Shown: positions 27,645 to 34,596 of the stretch, piece by piece
How the letters are laid out: each line of letters begins with the position of its first letter
Numbering within the stretch: position 1 is the stretch's first letter
From: a virus
Lineage: Duplodnaviria; Heunggongvirae; Uroviricota; Caudoviricetes
Strand: one strand, 5' to 3'
DNA: 34,596 nt
IMG/VR virus record: IMGVR_UViG_2541047860_000003
Coordinates: 1-34,596 of that record
The notes under the pieces: model-generated
The model's input: the letters and a program-made list of their open reading frames with translations, nothing else
Database searches by the model: none
What the model was told of the DNA's origin: nothing
Program-made: the position numbers and the translations under genes

Positions 27645-28000
27645 TGGCCCGTATCGGGGGAACCTGTTATTTCAAAATTGACGGTCAACAGCTATCGCTG
27701 ACCGGCGGCATTGAGGTGCCCATGAACAGGACGGTCAATGATGACATCATCGGCCTGGACGGTTCAGTGGACCGCAAGGAAACTCACCGTGCGCCTTATG
27801 TCAAAGGGACTTTCAAGGTGCCGAAGAATTTTCCGGTGAACAAAATCACCTCGTCTGATGAGATGACTATCACTGCCGAGCTGGCGAACGGTCAGGTCTA
27901 TGTACTGTCGTCTGCCTGGCTGCACGGCGAAGCGAACCATAATGCCGAAGAAGGTACGGTTGATCTTGAGTTCCACGGTGAAGAAGGGGATTACCAGTAA
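27644..28000 (+). CDS. Tail tube protein
   Basis: 118 aa directly after the sheath, start overlapping the sheath stop. Confidence 0.7.
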   Translation: MARIGGTCYFKIDGQQLSLTGGIEVPMNRTVNDDIIGLDGSVDRKETHRAPYVKGTFKVPKNFPVNKITSSDEMTITAELANGQVYVLSSAWLHGEANHNAEEGTVDLEFHGEEGDYQ

Positions 28001-28269
28001 TGAAAGAGCTTGAGTTAAAGAAACCGATTACTGCTCATGGCGAGACACTCTCCGTACTGGAGTTTGATGAGCCTACCGGGAAGGATGTCCGCGAGCTGGG
28101 GTATCCCTACCAGATGAATCAGGATGAGTCCGTCAGACTTCTGGCGCATGTGGTGTCGAAATACATTGTGCGGCTGGCGAAAGTGCCGCAAAGCTCTGTC
28201 GACCAGATGTCTCCGGCAGACCTGAATGCAGCGGCGTGGCTTGTGGCTGGTTTTTTCCTCCAGGCCTGA
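28000..28269 (+). CDS. Tail assembly chaperone (G-like)
   Basis: 89 aa after the tube; the slippery heptamer T_TTT_TTC sits in its last codons, allowing a -1 shift into the following frame. Confidence 0.55.
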   Translation: MKELELKKPITAHGETLSVLEFDEPTGKDVRELGYPYQMNQDESVRLLAHVVSKYIVRLAKVPQSSVDQMSPADLNAAAWLVAGFFLQA

Positions 28270-29783
28270 CGGCTGAATACCTCACTGATCGCTTCTTTGA
28301 CTGCGCCAGCTACTGGCGCATTAATCCCTTCGAATTGCTGAATTTGCCGTTCAGTAAAGTTGGAGCGAAAGCGCGGATTGCCAGGGTGCTCGATAAGCAT
28401 GGTCTTGTCGGTGATTATCGCGATGTGACCCGATATAGCATTGCCTCTGGTTATCCTTTCGACGGTGATGAGGTGACCGCCGAAATGGCAGAGTGTGAAA
28501 ACCTGTTTTCTGTGCCGGTTGACGTAATGATCACAAAGGTACAGGAAGATAAAGTCAGTGGCGTAGAGGTCGTAAAGGCGTGGAAATCTCTGCCTACCGC
28601 CGAAAATATCCAATGGGTATTTGAGCGCATCGGAGCCATGCCCGCTCGTAACATGATGTCGGCAAAAATTGAGCTTCTCAGCCTGGACGGCTGCAACTCT
28701 GGTGTTAGCGAGGTATCAGCGACCAGCCAGTTATTGAGCGAGTGCGCTCGCCGTGGAGTTCCCGACAAGAACTACGCAGCACACCTGGAATCAATCGCAG
28801 AACGCAATGCGTTTCACCCCATCAATGAGATTCTCAAATTCCGGCAATGGGATGGCAAAAACCGCGTTGCTGATGTGCTAGGCGCTATCAAGACTGATGA
28901 TGACCCATATTCTCATCAAATCCTGCTGAAATGGCTGGCTGGCGCGATTTGCGCCATTGATAGCGGCAGCGTGGCTATTAAGTTTTGCCCGGTCATTCAT
29001 AGCAAGGCCAACAACTGGTACAAGTCGCAGCTACCGGAGCGCCTGTTTAATCTGGTTGAAGGTGCTTTTGGTGGCGCTATCGGCATCCCGGAGCCATCGA
29101 ACAAAGACGACCTGATGAAATCAATTAGCGCCTGGTGTTATGAATTTGGCGAACTGGCTGGAATGACTAAGCGTGACGCAGAGGCTATCAAAAGCTTTAT
29201 CCCGATGAGTGAGGATATTTTCCGGTTGCCGTATGGCCGGTGTAATCTTTCCAAGCCGCGTCAGACGGTGTACATCGGCACAACTAACCGTGATGACTTC
29301 ATTCATGATGAGACAATCGCTACACGCTTCCCGGTTATTAAGCTCGCCTCACCGATTGACATCGAGCGTATCAATAAAGCACTTGGCTACGAGTTCGACG
29401 GCAACAGGGCCGTACTGACTGACCGCGAACAACTGATCCAATTCTGGCTTGAGGTTCGCCAGATGGTTGCAGACGGCCTTAATTACGTTATTGACGGTGA
29501 GTTGCTGGCTATTACCAGAGGGAAGAACAAAGAGTTCGAGTCGAGAACCAGCTATGACACCACGCTGCTTGATACGCTGGCGATGCACGATGGCCGCACA
29601 TATCAGACCACAACGCAGATATGCAATGAAATCGGCGTGCCGGTTGATAAGCGAGTACATGTGGGCAGGGCTCTCAACAAGCTTTCGGATAATGGTGTTA
29701 TTGAAAAGAAAGTGACAGGTGGAGTGGCTTACTACACCTTCCCCACGCGGGTTAACTATTTACCAACCCGAAATCCCGAATAA
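28236..29783 (+). CDS. VirE-like protein with degenerate P-loop and C-terminal winged helix; N-terminus continuous with the chaperone -1 frame (possible fusion)
   Basis: 515-aa ORF; central region ...KSFIPMSEDIFRLPYGRCNLSKPRQTVYIGTTNRDDFIHDETIATRFPVIKL resembles the VirE / primase C-terminal family, but the Walker A position reads HSKANNWYKS; C-terminal 60 aa are similar to the C-terminus of the 118-aa protein at 30441..30797. Confidence 0.45.
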   Translation: MACGWFFPPGLTAEYLTDRFFDCASYWRINPFELLNLPFSKVGAKARIARVLDKHGLVGDYRDVTRYSIASGYPFDGDEVTAEMAECENLFSVPVDVMITKVQEDKVSGVEVVKAWKSLPTAENIQWVFERIGAMPARNMMSAKIELLSLDGCNSGVSEVSATSQLLSECARRGVPDKNYAAHLESIAERNAFHPINEILKFRQWDGKNRVADVLGAIKTDDDPYSHQILLKWLAGAICAIDSGSVAIKFCPVIHSKANNWYKSQLPERLFNLVEGAFGGAIGIPEPSNKDDLMKSISAWCYEFGELAGMTKRDAEAIKSFIPMSEDIFRLPYGRCNLSKPRQTVYIGTTNRDDFIHDETIATRFPVIKLASPIDIERINKALGYEFDGNRAVLTDREQLIQFWLEVRQMVADGLNYVIDGELLAITRGKNKEFESRTSYDTTLLDTLAMHDGRTYQTTTQICNEIGVPVDKRVHVGRALNKLSDNGVIEKKVTGGVAYYTFPTRVNYLPTRNPE

Positions 29784-29799
29784 CCAGAACACAATCCAA

Positions 29800-29824
29800 C
29801 CCTGCTACGGCAGGGTTTTTTTTG
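29800..29824 (+). terminator. Strong intrinsic terminator
   Basis: CCCTGC-TACG-GCAGGG followed by nine T residues. Confidence 0.75.
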
Positions 29825-29920
29825 CCTCGTGATCGTGACTGCTTAGCCAGAAAAGGTCAAAAGAAAGCCACTGGAAAGAAAGTCAAAACCGGCCCCTGCT
29901 ATCCCGCCGCGCTCAGGTGG

Positions 29921-30265
29921 GGTACTCCACCTACTCCCCCTACTGATGTTACTCCACCTTGTTACTCCACCTGTTTAACTGAATGATATTAAATAAGAAA
30001 AACCAAAAGGTGGAGTAGGTGGGGTAAAAAGCCGCAAAAACTCCAGAGATTTAATCAGCGGTAAAAATACAACCACCTATGGGCTATATACTACTTATCT
30101 AATTAAATAATAATTATATATAAAGTTACTCCACCTACTCCCCCTAAAGAAAATAAAGTTAAATATAAACAATATGTTAGCTCATAAAAGGCATTTAATT
30201 TACCCCCCCTTTTACCCCACCTTTACTCCCCCTATGAAACTTACCCCCCCTGATTTACCCCACCT
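29921..30265. repeat. Iteron array with AT-rich region (putative plasmid-type origin)
   Basis: At least 12 copies of the 10-mer TAC(T/C)CC(A/C)CCT in both orientations (29921..29972 direct, 30007..30025 inverted, 30126..30145, 30198..30265) around an AT-rich stretch at 30060..30180. Confidence 0.6.
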
Positions 30266-30385
30266 GATGCAGGAATCTAGCAGGAAAGTTGATAGAAAAG
30301 GCATTTTGTATTTGCGGAAGTGGTATGTAGACGATCCGCTTTCTTTTCCCAGTGGCTTACTTCCACTATCTCTGCAATTCGCTCG

Positions 30386-30414
30386 CGTAGTCTGATGTTG
30401 GTATAATGAACCAT
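30386..30414 (+). promoter_or_regulatory. Sigma70-type promoter with extended -10 (TGgTATAATGAACC)
   Basis: GTTGGTATAATGAACC about 30 bp upstream of the 118-aa gene; near-identical to GGTGGTATAATGAACC at 31973..31988. Confidence 0.5.
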
Positions 30415-30440
30415 ATAACCAACAATGCAGAGATGCGACG

Positions 30441-30797
30441 ATGACCAATGAAACAAAGGCTTTCACGGTACGAATTCCCGCAGTCGTTTATCAGGCAATT
30501 GCTGAACGGGCAAAAAATGAAGGCCGGTCACTCAGCTACATGGTGAGCAATGCGCTCTGCGCGTTCGCTGGCATTGATGACGCCCAGGATGATTACGAAA
30601 CGCTTTTGCTTGAGGCAGTTAATACCGGGTCAAATATAAGGGCGCAGACAGTGACGGAAATTTGCAGCGTTATCGGTGTGGATGCTGCCAGGCGGATTCA
30701 TGTAGGCAAGGCATTGCGAAAACTGGCAAGTGGCGGAGCGGTAGTCATGCGGAACCGCAGCGGGTGCAGAGTCTATAAATTTCCTTCTAGCGTATAA
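30441..30797 (+). CDS. RHH (CopG-like) N-domain plus winged-helix C-domain regulator
   Basis: N-terminal KAFTVRIPAVVYQAIAERAKNEGRSLSYMVSNALCAF is ribbon-helix-helix-like; C-terminus similar to that of the 515-aa protein. Confidence 0.5.
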   Translation: MTNETKAFTVRIPAVVYQAIAERAKNEGRSLSYMVSNALCAFAGIDDAQDDYETLLLEAVNTGSNIRAQTVTEICSVIGVDAARRIHVGKALRKLASGGAVVMRNRSGCRVYKFPSSV

Positions 30798-31024
30798 TGG
30801 GCAACATGAACAAATTCGACAGAGTGAAACGCCTTGAAGCGTTCAAGCCAAAGCAGCATGAAGCTGTTCTATCAATTCTCCGGGAGCGTGCTGACATGCC
30901 GTCAGGCAATGCCGGGGAATGCGTGTTTGCCATTCTCATGAAGAAATATGCTTCGGCACAGCAAAAGCCCGCAGGTATCCAGGCGTCCGGCGGGGAAAAT
31001 TCTTTTCTTCCAGTGGCTAATTGA
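30797..31024 (+). CDS. Hypothetical 75-aa protein
   Basis: ORF start overlaps the preceding stop (TAATGG); no motif recognised. Confidence 0.3.
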   Translation: MGNMNKFDRVKRLEAFKPKQHEAVLSILRERADMPSGNAGECVFAILMKKYASAQQKPAGIQASGGENSFLPVAN

Positions 31025-31056
31025 CAGAATAACCCAACGGCAAAGTTGAGGCGTGT

Positions 31057-31512
31057 ATGAAAGACAATACCGTAAATGACGCACCTGATAACGAGCAGCC
31101 CGATATCGAACGTGATAAGCGGGGGCGGTTTACTAAGGGGCAATCAGGAAACCCATCAGGGCGAACCAGAAAGGAGCGCCAGTTATTAACAATGATGGGT
31201 GATGATGCTGACAGCGTGGCGCAAATCGTCATTGATGCGGCAAAGGGCGGTGACATGCAGGCTTGCCGCTTGGTACTTGAAAGGGTGCTTCCCGTCCGCA
31301 AGGCCAGATATGAGGCCGTAGAGTTTGAAATTGATGACACCACACTTGCAGGCTCTGCAAAGTCAATTCTTGCAGCTGTAGCAGGTGGAGATCTGCCACC
31401 AGACGTGGGCGCAATGCTTCTCCAATCAGTAGCTCAAACGGCGAAGATTATCGAGATTGACGAACTTGAGCGGCGAATCGCAGCACTGGAGAAAGGCAAT
31501 GAAACTGAATAA
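31057..31512 (+). CDS. DUF5681-like protein
   Basis: N-terminal KRGRFTKGQSGNPSGRTRKER motif recalled for DUF5681-type plasmid/phage proteins. Confidence 0.4.
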   Translation: MKDNTVNDAPDNEQPDIERDKRGRFTKGQSGNPSGRTRKERQLLTMMGDDADSVAQIVIDAAKGGDMQACRLVLERVLPVRKARYEAVEFEIDDTTLAGSAKSILAAVAGGDLPPDVGAMLLQSVAQTAKIIEIDELERRIAALEKGNETE

Positions 31513-31954
31513 ACGGCTTGAAGCTCTGGAGCAGCGTAGGCCCACGAAGAAGGGCGCAGAGGCTCTCACCGATGAAGAGCTGGCCGCAGCTATCGCCAGG
31601 TTTACACCGGAAGAGATCCGCGCAGCAGAACGGGAGTTATTGCTATGGTTAGGTTAACGCGACGCCTTGAGGTTCTGGAGGAGCAGAGACAGCGTCAGCA
31701 ACCGAAGATCGATTTCCCGCTATATACCATCATTGACAAGCCATCTATACAGACACCCCGCAAGCACTCATTTTCCAATCCTCCCGCTTATCTCTTGGTG
31801 AACTCCTGAAACGAAAAAGCCCCCACATTTCTGTAGGGGCCGTTTCGTCAATCTGCGTTTGATGGTCGGAAGGATGGCCGACAACCTAATTATGCACCGG
31901 CCTGTAAAAATGTACCAGCCTTAAATACAGAAAATCGTAAAAACTTAATCACGA

Positions 31955-31990
31955 TTTTCCGTAAATCATTAACGGTGGTATAATGAACCG
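31955..31990 (+). promoter_or_regulatory. Promoter with extended -10 plus palindromic operator
   Basis: ACAGAAAATCGTAAAAACTTAATCACGATTTTCCGT palindrome followed by GGTGGTATAATGAACC, upstream of the 134-aa gene. Confidence 0.45.
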
Positions 31991-32005
31991 TCAATCCTTC
32001 TTTTA

Positions 32006-32410
32006 ATGGTGATAGCGATGAACGAAGTAGATTCAATTCTGGCCGAGCAGAAAAGAGCCGCAGAACAACGCCGCTTGGCTAATGAGAAGAAGCGCCATCC
32101 ATCCGGCCTGTACGATGCGGGTGATGGGTGGTATGTGAAGCAAATCGAAGAGCTTCACTCCCCGCTGGGTCTCAGTAAGGTGGTTCTGGTAAGCCCTGAT
32201 GATGTTTGTGTGAGATATCAGCGCCAATATGGCAAAGCACTCACCACTGACAAATTGAAGGAATGGAGCAGGGACGGGAACTTCCCGTTGCCGCGCTCTA
32301 TTAATGGGGTTATCGGTTGGGAATCGAATGTTGTGACCAATGGCCTGAATGAACTGAGCAAAGCAGCCGGTCGCGGCTTTACCTGTATCACTCGAGGATT
32401 CGCACGATGA
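32006..32410 (+). CDS. Hypothetical 134-aa protein
   Basis: ORF downstream of the promoter/operator; no motif recognised. Confidence 0.35.
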   Translation: MVIAMNEVDSILAEQKRAAEQRRLANEKKRHPSGLYDAGDGWYVKQIEELHSPLGLSKVVLVSPDDVCVRYQRQYGKALTTDKLKEWSRDGNFPLPRSINGVIGWESNVVTNGLNELSKAAGRGFTCITRGFAR

Positions 32411-32613
32411 GCAAAGAATCTGTAATCGCGGCATTGAAAAAAGCGCGTGAAGCGCGTGAAGGCAATATCTTCGGTGGTACTGGGCAGGCCGAATTTAACA
32501 AAGATTTTTATGCTGGCCGCGCCACCAAAACAGATGGTGTCAGTAAGACCGACAGTAACGAGCCGATGAACCAAAAGGCATTTAATGCCCGGTTCTACTC
32601 CGGTAAAGGCTGA
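32407..32613 (+). CDS. Hypothetical 68-aa protein
   Basis: Start overlaps the previous stop (ATGA); Lys/Gly-rich. Confidence 0.3.
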   Translation: MSKESVIAALKKAREAREGNIFGGTGQAEFNKDFYAGRATKTDGVSKTDSNEPMNQKAFNARFYSGKG

Positions 32614-32708
32614 TTATAGGCAATCGGGCATATCGCAATTGCTGCCCGACTGTTTGGATTGTGACTGTTGAGAAATAGACGCAATTCCGCAATTACAGAA
32701 AATCGCAT

Positions 32709-32933
32709 TTACTTATTTCCGTATTTCTCCATTAGTAACTCTCTAACCTCATCGGCAATCTTTGCTCCTCTCTCTGCTGTTTGCATCTTGATGGCACGGT
32801 GCAAAGATTCAGGGATATCAATCGTCAGGCGCTTCATTTTTTCCGTTTCTTCTGGCGCTGTTACGCGGTCACTAATCCAGGCGTCTGCTGATGCTGGCGT
32901 TGGTTTTTTGCCAATTGAAATCTTCTTGCTCAC
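32709..32933 (-). CDS. ParG-like RHH centromere-binding protein
   Basis: 74 aa; GTG start overlapping the parA stop; C-terminal KRLTIDIPESLHRAIKMQTAERGAKIADEVRELL is ribbon-helix-helix-like. Confidence 0.55.
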   Translation of the reverse strand: MSKKISIGKKPTPASADAWISDRVTAPEETEKMKRLTIDIPESLHRAIKMQTAERGAKIADEVRELLMEKYGNK

Positions 32934-33559
32934 TTCATTATCTCCAGCAGTTCATTAATCAGGTTCTCAATCTCTGCAACAGCCTGGCTGTTAGCGTCTA
33001 CCTCATGCAGAGCTTTACCACTCGCCGCAGCCTCTGCGAATATCACTCGCTGGGTTATTGCAGTTTGCAATGTTGGGATGTCATAAGCGGCTAAAGCCTC
33101 GCGAACATCACGCCCAATAGCTGTATTTGCGATTTTACGATTAATCACAAAACATGATTTGATGTTTTCTTTAAATACAGAAGCCTCAGCAATGAGTTTT
33201 ACTATCTCATCGGCGGCCCATATGTCATATGGTGATGGTTGAACCGGTATAAGCACCGCATCGGATGCCATGATTGCAGAACGTGCCAGGTCAGTGACTC
33301 GCGGGGCACTATCAATTACAACATGGTCATAGCCTTTCGCCAGTTCCTGAACCTCTTTATGAATTGTGGCGCGGGGAAGCCCAACGACAGAGAATAATGG
33401 TTCCCCATCTCTCGCCGCCTGCCAATCTAACGCGCTCCCTTGCGGGTCTGCATCGAGCAGCAGCACCCGGCAGCCTCTCCGGGCAAGGCTTGCCGCAACG
33501 TTCACAGAAAGCGTTGTTTTACCCACTCCGCCTTTTTGATTCAGTACGCCAATTATCAT
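32930..33559 (-). CDS. parA: ParA-type partition ATPase (small type Ib)
   Basis: Deviant Walker A MIIGVLNQKGGVGKTT..., LLDADPQGS, 209 aa. Confidence 0.85.
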   Translation of the reverse strand: MIIGVLNQKGGVGKTTLSVNVAASLARRGCRVLLLDADPQGSALDWQAARDGEPLFSVVGLPRATIHKEVQELAKGYDHVVIDSAPRVTDLARSAIMASDAVLIPVQPSPYDIWAADEIVKLIAEASVFKENIKSCFVINRKIANTAIGRDVREALAAYDIPTLQTAITQRVIFAEAAASGKALHEVDANSQAVAEIENLINELLEIMK

Positions 33560-33703
33560 GTCGACCTCTATCCAGTTTTGGCCAGATGGTACAGAAAATC
33601 GTAAAAACTTAAAAGCGTATCTTCTAATTTACAGATGAATAATCCTGTTAAATACACGCGGCAGCCCTCGTTTTTTCGTCCAGTGGCCATATTAGCGGGC
33701 CAT

Positions 33704-33735
33704 TTGACATGGCTTCAAAACGGCTTCAAAATGAT
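33704..33735 (+). promoter_or_regulatory. Sigma70-like promoter with direct-repeat operator
   Basis: TTGACA at 33704..33709, 17-bp spacer containing GGCTTCAAAA twice, then CAAAAT; upstream of the RHH gene. Confidence 0.4.
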
Positions 33736-33756
33736 GCCATAACCATAGGGGGATTT

Positions 33757-33915
33757 ATGCCAACACCAAAACCGAAAACCATCACATTCAGGCTTTCAGA
33801 TGAACTACTGGAAGATCTTAAGCGCCTTGCCGACGATGAAGGACGCTCTATTAATTCGATGCTCACGGAGTTGGTGAAGCGAGCCGCTAAAAAGCAGGAT
33901 GGCGAAAGTAAATGA
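33757..33915 (+). CDS. Small RHH (CopG/Arc-type) DNA-binding protein
   Basis: 52 aa from internal ATG; KTITFRLSDELLEDLKRLADDEGRSINSMLTELV is an RHH signature. Confidence 0.5.
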   Translation: MPTPKPKTITFRLSDELLEDLKRLADDEGRSINSMLTELVKRAAKKQDGESK

Positions 33916-34337
33916 GAAAAACACTCCTGGCATTAATCGTTATCTTGGGGTCAGTTTGGAGATCGGAAATTTCTGTACGTTAAGCGCATTATTTAACCAA
34001 TCTTGGTTCGTAAGGGGTTGATTTTGCGTCAGTGGCTATCGCTTTTAAGTTGTCGCTCTTGCAGTATCGCATTTAGGTTATCCGATTAAGGTCAAACCTC
34101 TGAAAATGCCGTATAGCGCGGGAGTACACCCTATTGCGATAGCGCGATCTGTTCAAAAAACAGGCTTAACGTACAATAATTTCCGATCTCCAAACTCACC
34201 CCTTATTCACGCTGGCCAACCTGTTTCGGGCGGACCAAATGATACGTCAGTGGGAGAGATCTCACTAAAAACTGGGGATAGCGCCTTAAATGGCGAAGAA
34301 ACGGTCTAAATAGGCTGATTCAAGGCATTTACGGGAG

Positions 34338-34596
34338 GGTGATGCTGCCAACTTACTGATTTAGTGTATGATGGTGTTTTTGAGGTGCTCCAGTGGCTTC
34401 TGTTTCTATCAGCTGTCCCTCCTGTTCAGCTACTGACGGGGTGGTGCGTAACGGCAAAAGCACCGCCGGACATCAGCGCTATCTCTGCTCTCACTGCCGT
34501 AAAACATGGCAACTGCAGTTCACTTACACCGCTTCTCAACCCGGTACGCACCAGAAAATCATTGATATGGCCATGAATGGCGTTGGATGCCGGGCA
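34338..34596 (+). mobile_element. IS1 left end (partial, continues beyond window)
   Basis: Starts with the IS1 terminal repeat GGTGATGCTGCCAACTTACTGATTTAGTGTATGATGG and continues into insA; matches IS1 from memory. Confidence 0.9.
34393..34596 (+). CDS. insA: IS1 InsA (5' portion, truncated by window end)
   Basis: GTG start; translation [68 protein letters not shown] matches IS1 InsA. Confidence 0.85.

Follow-up and report, generated by a model that had tools for sequence, protein, structure and literature searches.

A ribbon-helix-helix protein with a paralogue of the Rep winged helix beside a SaPI-type iteron origin: a possible regulator of initiation in an enterobacterial plasmid lineage

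A plasmid-derived replication module was identified in the virus record IMGVR_UViG_2541047860_000003 (IMG/VR), of which the whole stretch of 34,596 nucleotides (nt) was analyzed and is called the window in the following. In this module, two genes on either side of an iteron origin encode proteins with homologous C-terminal winged helices. The first one is a truncated Rep, a helicase-type replication initiator, and the second one is a protein of 118 amino acids (aa), in which a ribbon-helix-helix (RHH) domain precedes a paralogue of the winged helix of Rep. Tentatively, the short protein is regarded as a trans-acting negative regulator of initiation at this origin, that is, as a dimeric origin binder which has no helicase. 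This reading is based on the homology of the domains, the winged-helix models, the layout of the origin, which resembles that of the Staphylococcus aureus pathogenicity islands (SaPIs), the retention of the short gene and an inverted repeat bracketing the origin. From these observations, we infer the DNA sites bound by both proteins as well as the direction of the regulation. The coordinates of the features are listed in Table 1.

The winged helix of Rep (aa 440-506) and that of the 118-aa protein (aa 52-118) align without gaps and are identical at 26 of 67 positions (BLASTP E 2e-14). A profile built from the two segments found 10 matches among 1.84 billion representative proteins. All of them carry this domain, and the similarity is therefore specific. 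A follow-up profile of 12 sequences found 9 proteins. Structure prediction gave winged helices for both C-termini. In the AlphaFold2 (AF2) model of the C-terminal 140 aa of Rep, the topology is helix-strand-helix-helix-hairpin with a predicted local distance difference test (pLDDT) score of 80-85 over the domain, and a Foldseek search with the winged-helix model retrieved winged helix-turn-helix regulators (E ~1e-3, probability 1.0). In the 118-aa protein, both domains were modelled confidently, with the C-terminal part as the winged helix. Neither protein matches a Pfam family of the Rep_3-type WH1-WH2 domain at E up to 0.1. The sequence-only reading of the window had taken the two C-termini for homologous winged helices, one belonging to an initiator and the other to an RHH protein, with an iteron array between the genes, and in these points it was borne out by the searches described here and below.

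The long protein contains a VapE-like domain (Pfam VapE-like_dom PF05272, E 6e-33, 114.5 bits, cutoff 25) and matches DNA helicase/primase families of the PHROG database (E 6e-35). Its best relative of solved structure is 7PDS (7pds_A; phmmer E 2.3e-18, aa 184-366), which is the Rep1 protein of SaPI1 bound to DNA (PMC9371898). Judged by sequence similarity, it is a homologue of the SaPI Reps. These are self-loading helicases, for which experiments have shown that the C-terminal winged helix recognizes short iterons directly downstream of rep. In their origins, two or more iterons on each side, opposite in orientation, surround a centre rich in AT (PMC9371898). In one respect, the sequence-only reading has to be corrected. 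The open reading frame (ORF) of the 515-aa protein encodes a truncated Rep fused in frame to the frameshift extension of a tail chaperone, and the primase is missing. Native Rep proteins of this lineage have 511-543 aa, and the intact homologue P0004 (511 aa) differs at the N-terminus from the 515-aa protein. Its N-terminal 36 aa are derived from a prophage and correspond to the -1 frame of the gene for the tail-assembly chaperone (28000-28269), in which a slippery site, the canonical -1 heptamer T_TTT_TTC, is located at 28251-28257. No stop codon interrupts this frame between the chaperone gene and the truncated Rep beyond the phage/plasmid junction, so that a frameshift in late expression of the prophage would yield a chaperone-Rep fusion.

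The N-terminus of the 118-aa protein matches the Pfam families Arc (17.7 bits, E 0.003, cutoff 20.4) and RHH_5 (15.9 bits, cutoff 26), in both cases below the cutoff. Furthermore, it matches five Arc-like or related PHROGs (E 6e-5 to 3e-3) and shares 25% identity (BLASTP E 2e-5) with an Arc-like protein encoded at 33709-33915 by the same element. The RHH topology can be followed in the segment FTVRIP, a helix at residues 14-27, the turn G28-R-S30 and a second helix at residues 31-42. RHH folds pair their strands across the dimer, so that the strand, which is unformed in the monomer model, would be expected to be so. By these similarities, the 118-aa protein is regarded as an Arc-like RHH domain fused to a Rep-type winged helix. 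For both domains, the element encodes a paralogue, which makes the protein a chimera of two of its modules.

In the region between the two genes, a span of 351 nt comprises 14 copies of the iteron TACYCCMCCT, of which 0.19 would be expected in the whole window. The layout of the region is that of the SaPIs, as the rep gene is followed by a terminator, iterons and oppositely oriented iteron pairs around AT-rich DNA. By analogy with SaPI origins, the AT-rich centre at 30027-30126 is likely the melting region. Across seven related plasmid loci, the iterons vary mostly at the degenerate positions Y and M. Outside the origin, no iterons were found in the 13-kb plasmids, promoters included, and there is thus no other obvious target for a Rep-type winged helix. 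The same order of gene, terminator, iterons, AT-rich DNA and iterons was found in L002, a phage-like contig encoding a Rep with 44% identity. Its iteron TACYTCACT is related to TACYCCMCCT, and the recognition helices of the two Reps are related as well. In the intergenic region of another relative, L003, clear iterons were not found. A direct repeat AAAAGGCATTT (30186, 30296) was dropped from the origin features, because it is not conserved in the related plasmids. The DNA coding for the wing of the winged helix of Rep itself contains, at 29717-29739, two sites with a weak resemblance to the iteron and an inverted orientation, namely CACTCCACCT on the minus and TACTACACCT on the plus strand.

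The entire iteron region is enclosed by an inverted repeat of 22-24 nt, AAGAAAGCCACTGG..AAAGAAAG. It reaches a Smith-Waterman score of 17, compared to 8.7 +/- 1.5 for 1000 dinucleotide shuffles, of which one reached this score. In each arm, CCA(C/G)TGG lies between repeats of the AAAGAAAG type, and the core occurs at these two sites only in the full plasmid. A comparable repeat bracketing the origin was not found in L002, a relative without the short protein.

A candidate promoter of the short gene lies between the right arm and the start codon. An extended -10 element, TGGTATAAT, was read by eye at 30401-30409 and is flanked by two further inverted repeats, ATCTCTGCA (30368-76/30426-34) and TGTTGGT (30396-402/30418-24). 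The 7-nt repeat TGTTGGT is at chance level and the 9-nt repeat ATCTCTGCA is marginal by our estimate. The promoter-proximal arms and the -10 element are invariant in 7/7 loci, with one of the seven showing a single-base change 5 nt upstream of the ATG. As a scan with the sigma-70 consensus over 29700-31100 gave no match, the promoter is regarded as putative.

The fusion of RHH domain and winged helix is restricted to a single enterobacterial lineage of ~13-kb plasmids in searches covering 1.8-5.8 billion proteins. With a single sequence as query, three near-identical clusters were found, located on plasmids of ~12-14 kb or fragments thereof in E. coli, Shigella and Atlantibacter. Within the lineage, the 118-aa gene is present in all 20+ contigs and shows mostly synonymous changes, which outnumber the nonsynonymous ones in most allele pairs (e.g., 7:1). 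None of the five amino acid polymorphisms T62I, R67K, A83S, H87Q and C109R (30441-30797; alleles L001, L007-L014) affects the RHH half, which is invariant. All belong to the winged-helix half, and two lie within the recognition helix. The winged helix of Rep is invariant across 10 loci. A short paralogue as a general trait of the Rep family was considered and rejected, since the other short matches (P0032-P0034, P0036-P0039) consist of C-terminal fragments of VapE proteins or of VapE chimeras formed by deletion. One of these, P0039 from Vibrio parahaemolyticus (81 aa, on contigs of up to 422 kb), combines an unrelated N-terminus with the C-terminal half of the winged helix, i.e., recognition helix and wing, and is probably what a deletion has left of a VapE-type Rep. 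Near the closest Rep relatives, no paralogue of the domain was found among the tested neighboring ORFs of L002 and L003/L004, those adjacent to the origin included.

The window itself is chromosomal DNA of E. coli. Up to ~28358 it consists of the module for head and tail of a prophage similar to SfV/SfII. From 28342/28343 to 33903, it is 97-98% identical to NZ_CP055032.1, a circular plasmid of 13,291 bp from Shigella flexneri, and at 34338 it terminates in the end of the insertion sequence IS1. The left edge of the plasmid fragment lies inside the rep gene, which is the reason for the missing primase, and neither the integrase, the Toprim primase nor the AlpA-like gene of the plasmid was found in the window. 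A second E. coli chromosome carries the same fragment between caiC and fixA, with a left breakpoint that is equal to within one base. E. coli C10 and 2017-02-1CC are strains with the chromosomal fossil. The module in the window is a truncated chromosomal fossil of a ~13-kb plasmid. As both the primase and the native N-terminus of Rep are missing, this copy is probably no working replicon, and it is unlikely that the module replicates itself.

For the ~6-kb fragment (28342-34337; L005; L006 6001-14300) with the left breakpoint |TTTGCCGTTCAG, the two chromosomal contexts are unrelated. The first is the SfV-like prophage near the rcl genes, and the second lies between a truncated caiC and fixA, adjoining IS5. 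In the prophage copy, the junction falls within a patch of imperfect microhomology between phage and plasmid. The SfV/SfII-like prophage (1-28358) has retained its head genes as well as those for sheath, tube and chaperone of the tail. It is defective, because the tape measure gene and everything distal to it are replaced by the plasmid fragment.

In the proposed mechanism, the C-terminal winged helix of Rep would, as in the SaPI Reps, recognize the TACYCCMCCT iterons just past its own gene, and Rep would assemble on the iterons of opposite orientation that flank the AT-rich centre. The Arc-like RHH domain would make the 118-aa protein an obligate dimer or tetramer. A dimer equipped with two Rep-type winged helices could occupy the iterons or the bracketing repeat, by which origins would be occluded or paired, and the RHH domain may in addition bind palindromic DNA at the promoter of its own gene. 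Since the short gene is located on the replicon, its dose would track the copy number. A more specific version of this is doubtful: that copies of the RHH domain and the Rep winged helix of the element were assembled into a purpose-built origin regulator, the 118-aa protein, whose dimer occupies or pairs the iterons and the bracketing repeat and thereby gives a SaPI-Rep-like initiator the trans-acting copy-number control, or handcuffing, which it cannot supply itself.

Several observations weigh against a short protein that acts on the iterons. Its winged helix is 38% identical to that of the cognate Rep and likewise 38% identical to that of the non-cognate P0029. In the recognition helix, 8/16 positions are identical to the cognate Rep (5-9/16 for non-cognate ones), and in the wing 5/18. 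Rep domains which have diverged to a similar degree (window vs L002, 35% identity) have different iterons. The commonest allele of the short gene carries H87Q in the recognition helix, whereas the winged helix of Rep is invariant in the same loci. Moreover, no iteron-like site was found at the promoter of the short gene, and the protein was not found beyond this one lineage. Identity of the recognition helices was discarded as a proof of shared specificity, because the cognate pair is no closer than non-cognate pairs. The residues preceding the motif VGKAL, RRIH in the short protein and KRVH in the cognate Rep, are the best match in the family if conservative changes are counted. Based on their sequences, it is plausible that the short protein and Rep bind the same site, but this is not assured, as their winged helices resemble each other no more closely than do the Rep domains of elements with different iterons. 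The proposal of the sequence-only reading, an initiator together with a competing or handcuffing regulator, is thus supported in part. The class of the initiator, the winged helix, the RHH domain and the anatomy of the origin speak for it, and the lack of a closer relationship to the cognate than to a non-cognate Rep speaks against it.

It is rather unlikely that the main role of the short protein is that of a transcription factor for its own operon, consisting of the 118-aa gene, the 75-aa ORF, the DUF5681 gene and the genes onward. In this case, the RHH domain and/or the winged helix would bind the palindromes at the promoter and the bracketing repeat and not the iterons, and the protein would have the ancestry of the Rep domain without its target. 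The short gene is the first of the operon, its stop codon overlaps the start codon of the 75-aa ORF, which is likely co-transcribed with it, and Arc/CopG-type RHH proteins are classical repressors. The position of the right arm close to the -10 element, the repeats straddling the latter, the invariance of all these arms in 7 loci and the divergence between the two winged helices, which equals that among Rep domains of differing specificity, would agree with such a function as well. However, a distance of 480 nt separates the left arm of the bracketing repeat, which lies beyond the origin and without an adjacent promoter, and this is better explained by a role at the origin than by simple repression. 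In addition, the statistics of the two smaller repeats and the empty promoter scan argue against this reading.

The closest functional analogue of the module is the system of the phage-plasmid P4, consisting of alpha, ori/crr and Cnr, and the likeness is functional only. Like Rep, the primase-helicase alpha (1KA8) is a helicase-type initiator with a C-terminal winged helix, its crr repeats lie just downstream of the gene, and the regulator of copy number, Cnr, has ~100 aa. BLASTP found no significant similarity of alpha to the long protein (E 17) and gave no alignment of Cnr (DUF5375) with the short protein, and the sequences of alpha and Cnr are not similar either. Cnr is said to act via the origin-binding domain of alpha. 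A Cnr-like action of the short protein, in which the winged helix would work by protein contacts, is unlikely. As a free mimic of the C-terminal domain of Rep, it would bind the winged helix or the ATPase body of Rep and alter its DNA binding or the activity of the hexamer. In favor of this, the C-terminal domain of SaPI Reps is domain-swapped onto the neighboring ATPase and required for full activity (PMC9371898), and plasmid copy number is controlled by P4 cnr (PMC8628076). Against it stand the absent sequence relation to Cnr or alpha and the conserved core of the shared domain, which is the recognition-helix motif VGKAL-KL and suggests that the contact to DNA is retained.

Quite improbable is a positive architectural factor that marks or bends the origin, aids the loading of Rep and is required for replication. 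The short gene adjoins the origin, its product would bind as a dimer and have sites on both flanks of it, and the element depends on life as a plasmid partitioned by ParA/ParG, but SaPI Reps load without accessory factors (PMC9371898), and L002 and L003 share the layout of rep and origin without having such a protein. Finally, that the ORF is a functionless by-product of neutral domain shuffling or a decaying gene would fit the very narrow lineage and the confinement of the polymorphisms to the winged-helix half, but this is hardly credible in view of the reading frame, which is intact in every copy, chromosomal fossils included, the synonymous excess and the confident models of both domains.

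In comparison with known replicons, the module most resembles the Pri-Rep-ori type of SaPIs and phage-inducible chromosomal islands (PICIs), represented by SaPI1 Rep1 and SaPI5 PriRep5 (7PDS, 7OLA), with which it has the VapE-like helicase, the C-terminal winged helix and the layout of the origin in common. The parent plasmid additionally shares the separate upstream primase, the integrase and the AlpA-like gene, and it belongs to this class; the copy in the window lacks the primase. Unlike in SaPIs and PICIs, for which no second protein with the Rep winged helix is described, such a protein is encoded here, and the module belongs to a plasmid of Enterobacteriaceae, which is partitioned by ParA/ParG, has 10-bp iterons and is represented in the window by a truncated copy.

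The archaeal plasmid pRN1 also encodes an RHH regulator, the CopG-like ORF56, beside an initiator composed of primase-polymerase, superfamily 3 (SF3) helicase and winged helix (ORF904), and its origin is located downstream of orf904. In contrast to the 118-aa protein, ORF56 is a plain RHH protein without the winged helix of the initiator, is encoded upstream of the rep gene and represses the rep operon. Short antagonists that keep the DNA-binding module of a longer protein, and act on the same sites or by mixed oligomers, are known from papillomaviruses (E2-TR/E8^E2 vs E2), IS1 (InsA vs InsAB′) and Tn5 (Inh vs Tnp). Those owe their origin to alternative starts, splicing or frameshifting within the gene of the longer protein and have the identical domain, whereas the 118-aa protein is encoded by a separate gene and its domain is a paralogue fused to an unrelated module for dimerization and DNA binding. 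Rep_3 iteron plasmids (RepA, RepE, pi) also have iteron arrays beside an AT-rich region and are negatively controlled by pairing or occupancy of iterons. Rep_3 initiators are WH1-WH2 proteins which recruit the host DnaB and control themselves by a monomer/dimer equilibrium. The initiator described here differs from them in being a helicase itself, with a Pfam match to the VapE-like domain only.

Table 1. Features of the replication module and its surroundings in the window.
Feature	Position	Strand	Basis
Truncated Rep (VapE-like SF3-type helicase initiator) with 36 prophage-derived aa	28236..29783	+	Pfam, PDB, plasmid alignment (97.7% identity to NZ_CP055032.1 from 28342)
C-terminal winged helix of Rep (origin-binding type), aa 440-506	29553..29753	+	BLASTP, AF2, Foldseek
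Hairpin and T-run resembling an intrinsic terminator, ending the rep transcript	29798..29825	+	
Inverted repeat, left arm, 22-24 nt, AAGAAAGCCACTGGAAAGAAAG	29861..29882		
Iteron cluster 1: inverted copy 29915; direct copies 29923, 29932, 29950, 29963	29915..29972		
Inverted iteron pair (30008, 30017), left of the AT-rich centre	30008..30026	-	
AT-rich centre, 100 nt, GC down to 18%	30027..30126		
Direct iteron pair (30127, 30136), opposing the inverted pair across the AT-rich centre	30127..30145	+	
Second AT-rich stretch, GC 18%	30146..30200		
Five direct iterons (30201, 30213, 30224, 30242, 30256)	30201..30265	+	
Inverted repeat, right arm, 42-65 nt upstream of the -10 element of the short gene	30339..30362		
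Candidate promoter/operator of the short gene	30368..30434		sequence reading
118-aa RHH-winged-helix protein: RHH ~aa 4-42 (30450-30566), linker, winged helix aa 52-118 (30594-30794)	30441..30797	+	
75-aa ORF, ATG overlapping the stop codon of the short gene (TAATG)	30797..31024	+	
DUF5681 gene, after the 75-aa ORF	31057-31512		
Arc-like RHH protein of the same element	33709..33915	+	Pfam RHH_5 33.6 bits (cutoff 26)

The parent element is a circular plasmid of 13-14 kb (L001 = NZ_CP055032.1, L007-L013). Its core is PICI/P4-like and consists of a tyrosine integrase, a Toprim_3 primase (363 aa), an HTH_17/AlpA-like protein, Rep and the origin. It also encodes ParA/ParG-like partition proteins and a DUF5681 protein, as well as a 520-aa protein resembling a tape measure (PF10145, weak match) and a Dit-like distal tail protein (PF21821), and it looks like a phage-satellite-like plasmid with tail-type genes. 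A segment of 3.5 kb codes for three RHH-type proteins or domains, namely the ParG-like partner of ParA (32709-32933, minus strand), the Arc-like protein (33709-33915, plus strand) and the N-terminus of the 118-aa protein (30441-30566, plus strand), the latter two forming the paralogous pair. Another truncated rep gene was observed in L012 (6255-7067), in a plasmid context with ParA/ParB and umuDC-like genes. There, Rep is cut to 270 aa and adjoins a reverse transcriptase of the group II intron type, with the origin and the 118-aa gene being intact. The rep gene has thus been truncated a second time, independently, and again the short gene was spared.

For an RHH-fused paralogue of the origin-binding domain of Rep, or a VapE plasmid encoding one, no description was found in the literature, which is a weak negative, as subscription papers were mostly outside the coverage. 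The replicon is of a known type, SaPI/PICI Pri-Rep-ori, and the RHH-fused paralogue of the Rep domain is a variant of it for which we know of no earlier description and which belongs to one narrow lineage. For annotation, the long ORF serves as a lesson, since it is a fusion artefact created by a plasmid fragment inside a defective prophage and corresponds to no native protein. Replicons of the Pri-Rep-ori type power many phage satellites such as SaPIs and PICIs and some plasmids. To our knowledge, the restraint of a self-loading helicase initiator during stable plasmid life is poorly understood, with Cnr of P4 as the only classical example. A separate small protein with a paralogue of the origin-binding domain of the initiator would be a simple and testable control device, and if it acts as proposed, fossils which retain the short gene and the iterons could block the entry of plasmids of this family. 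Such a protein would furthermore illustrate clearly how a regulator arises by the shuffling of domains within one mobile element.

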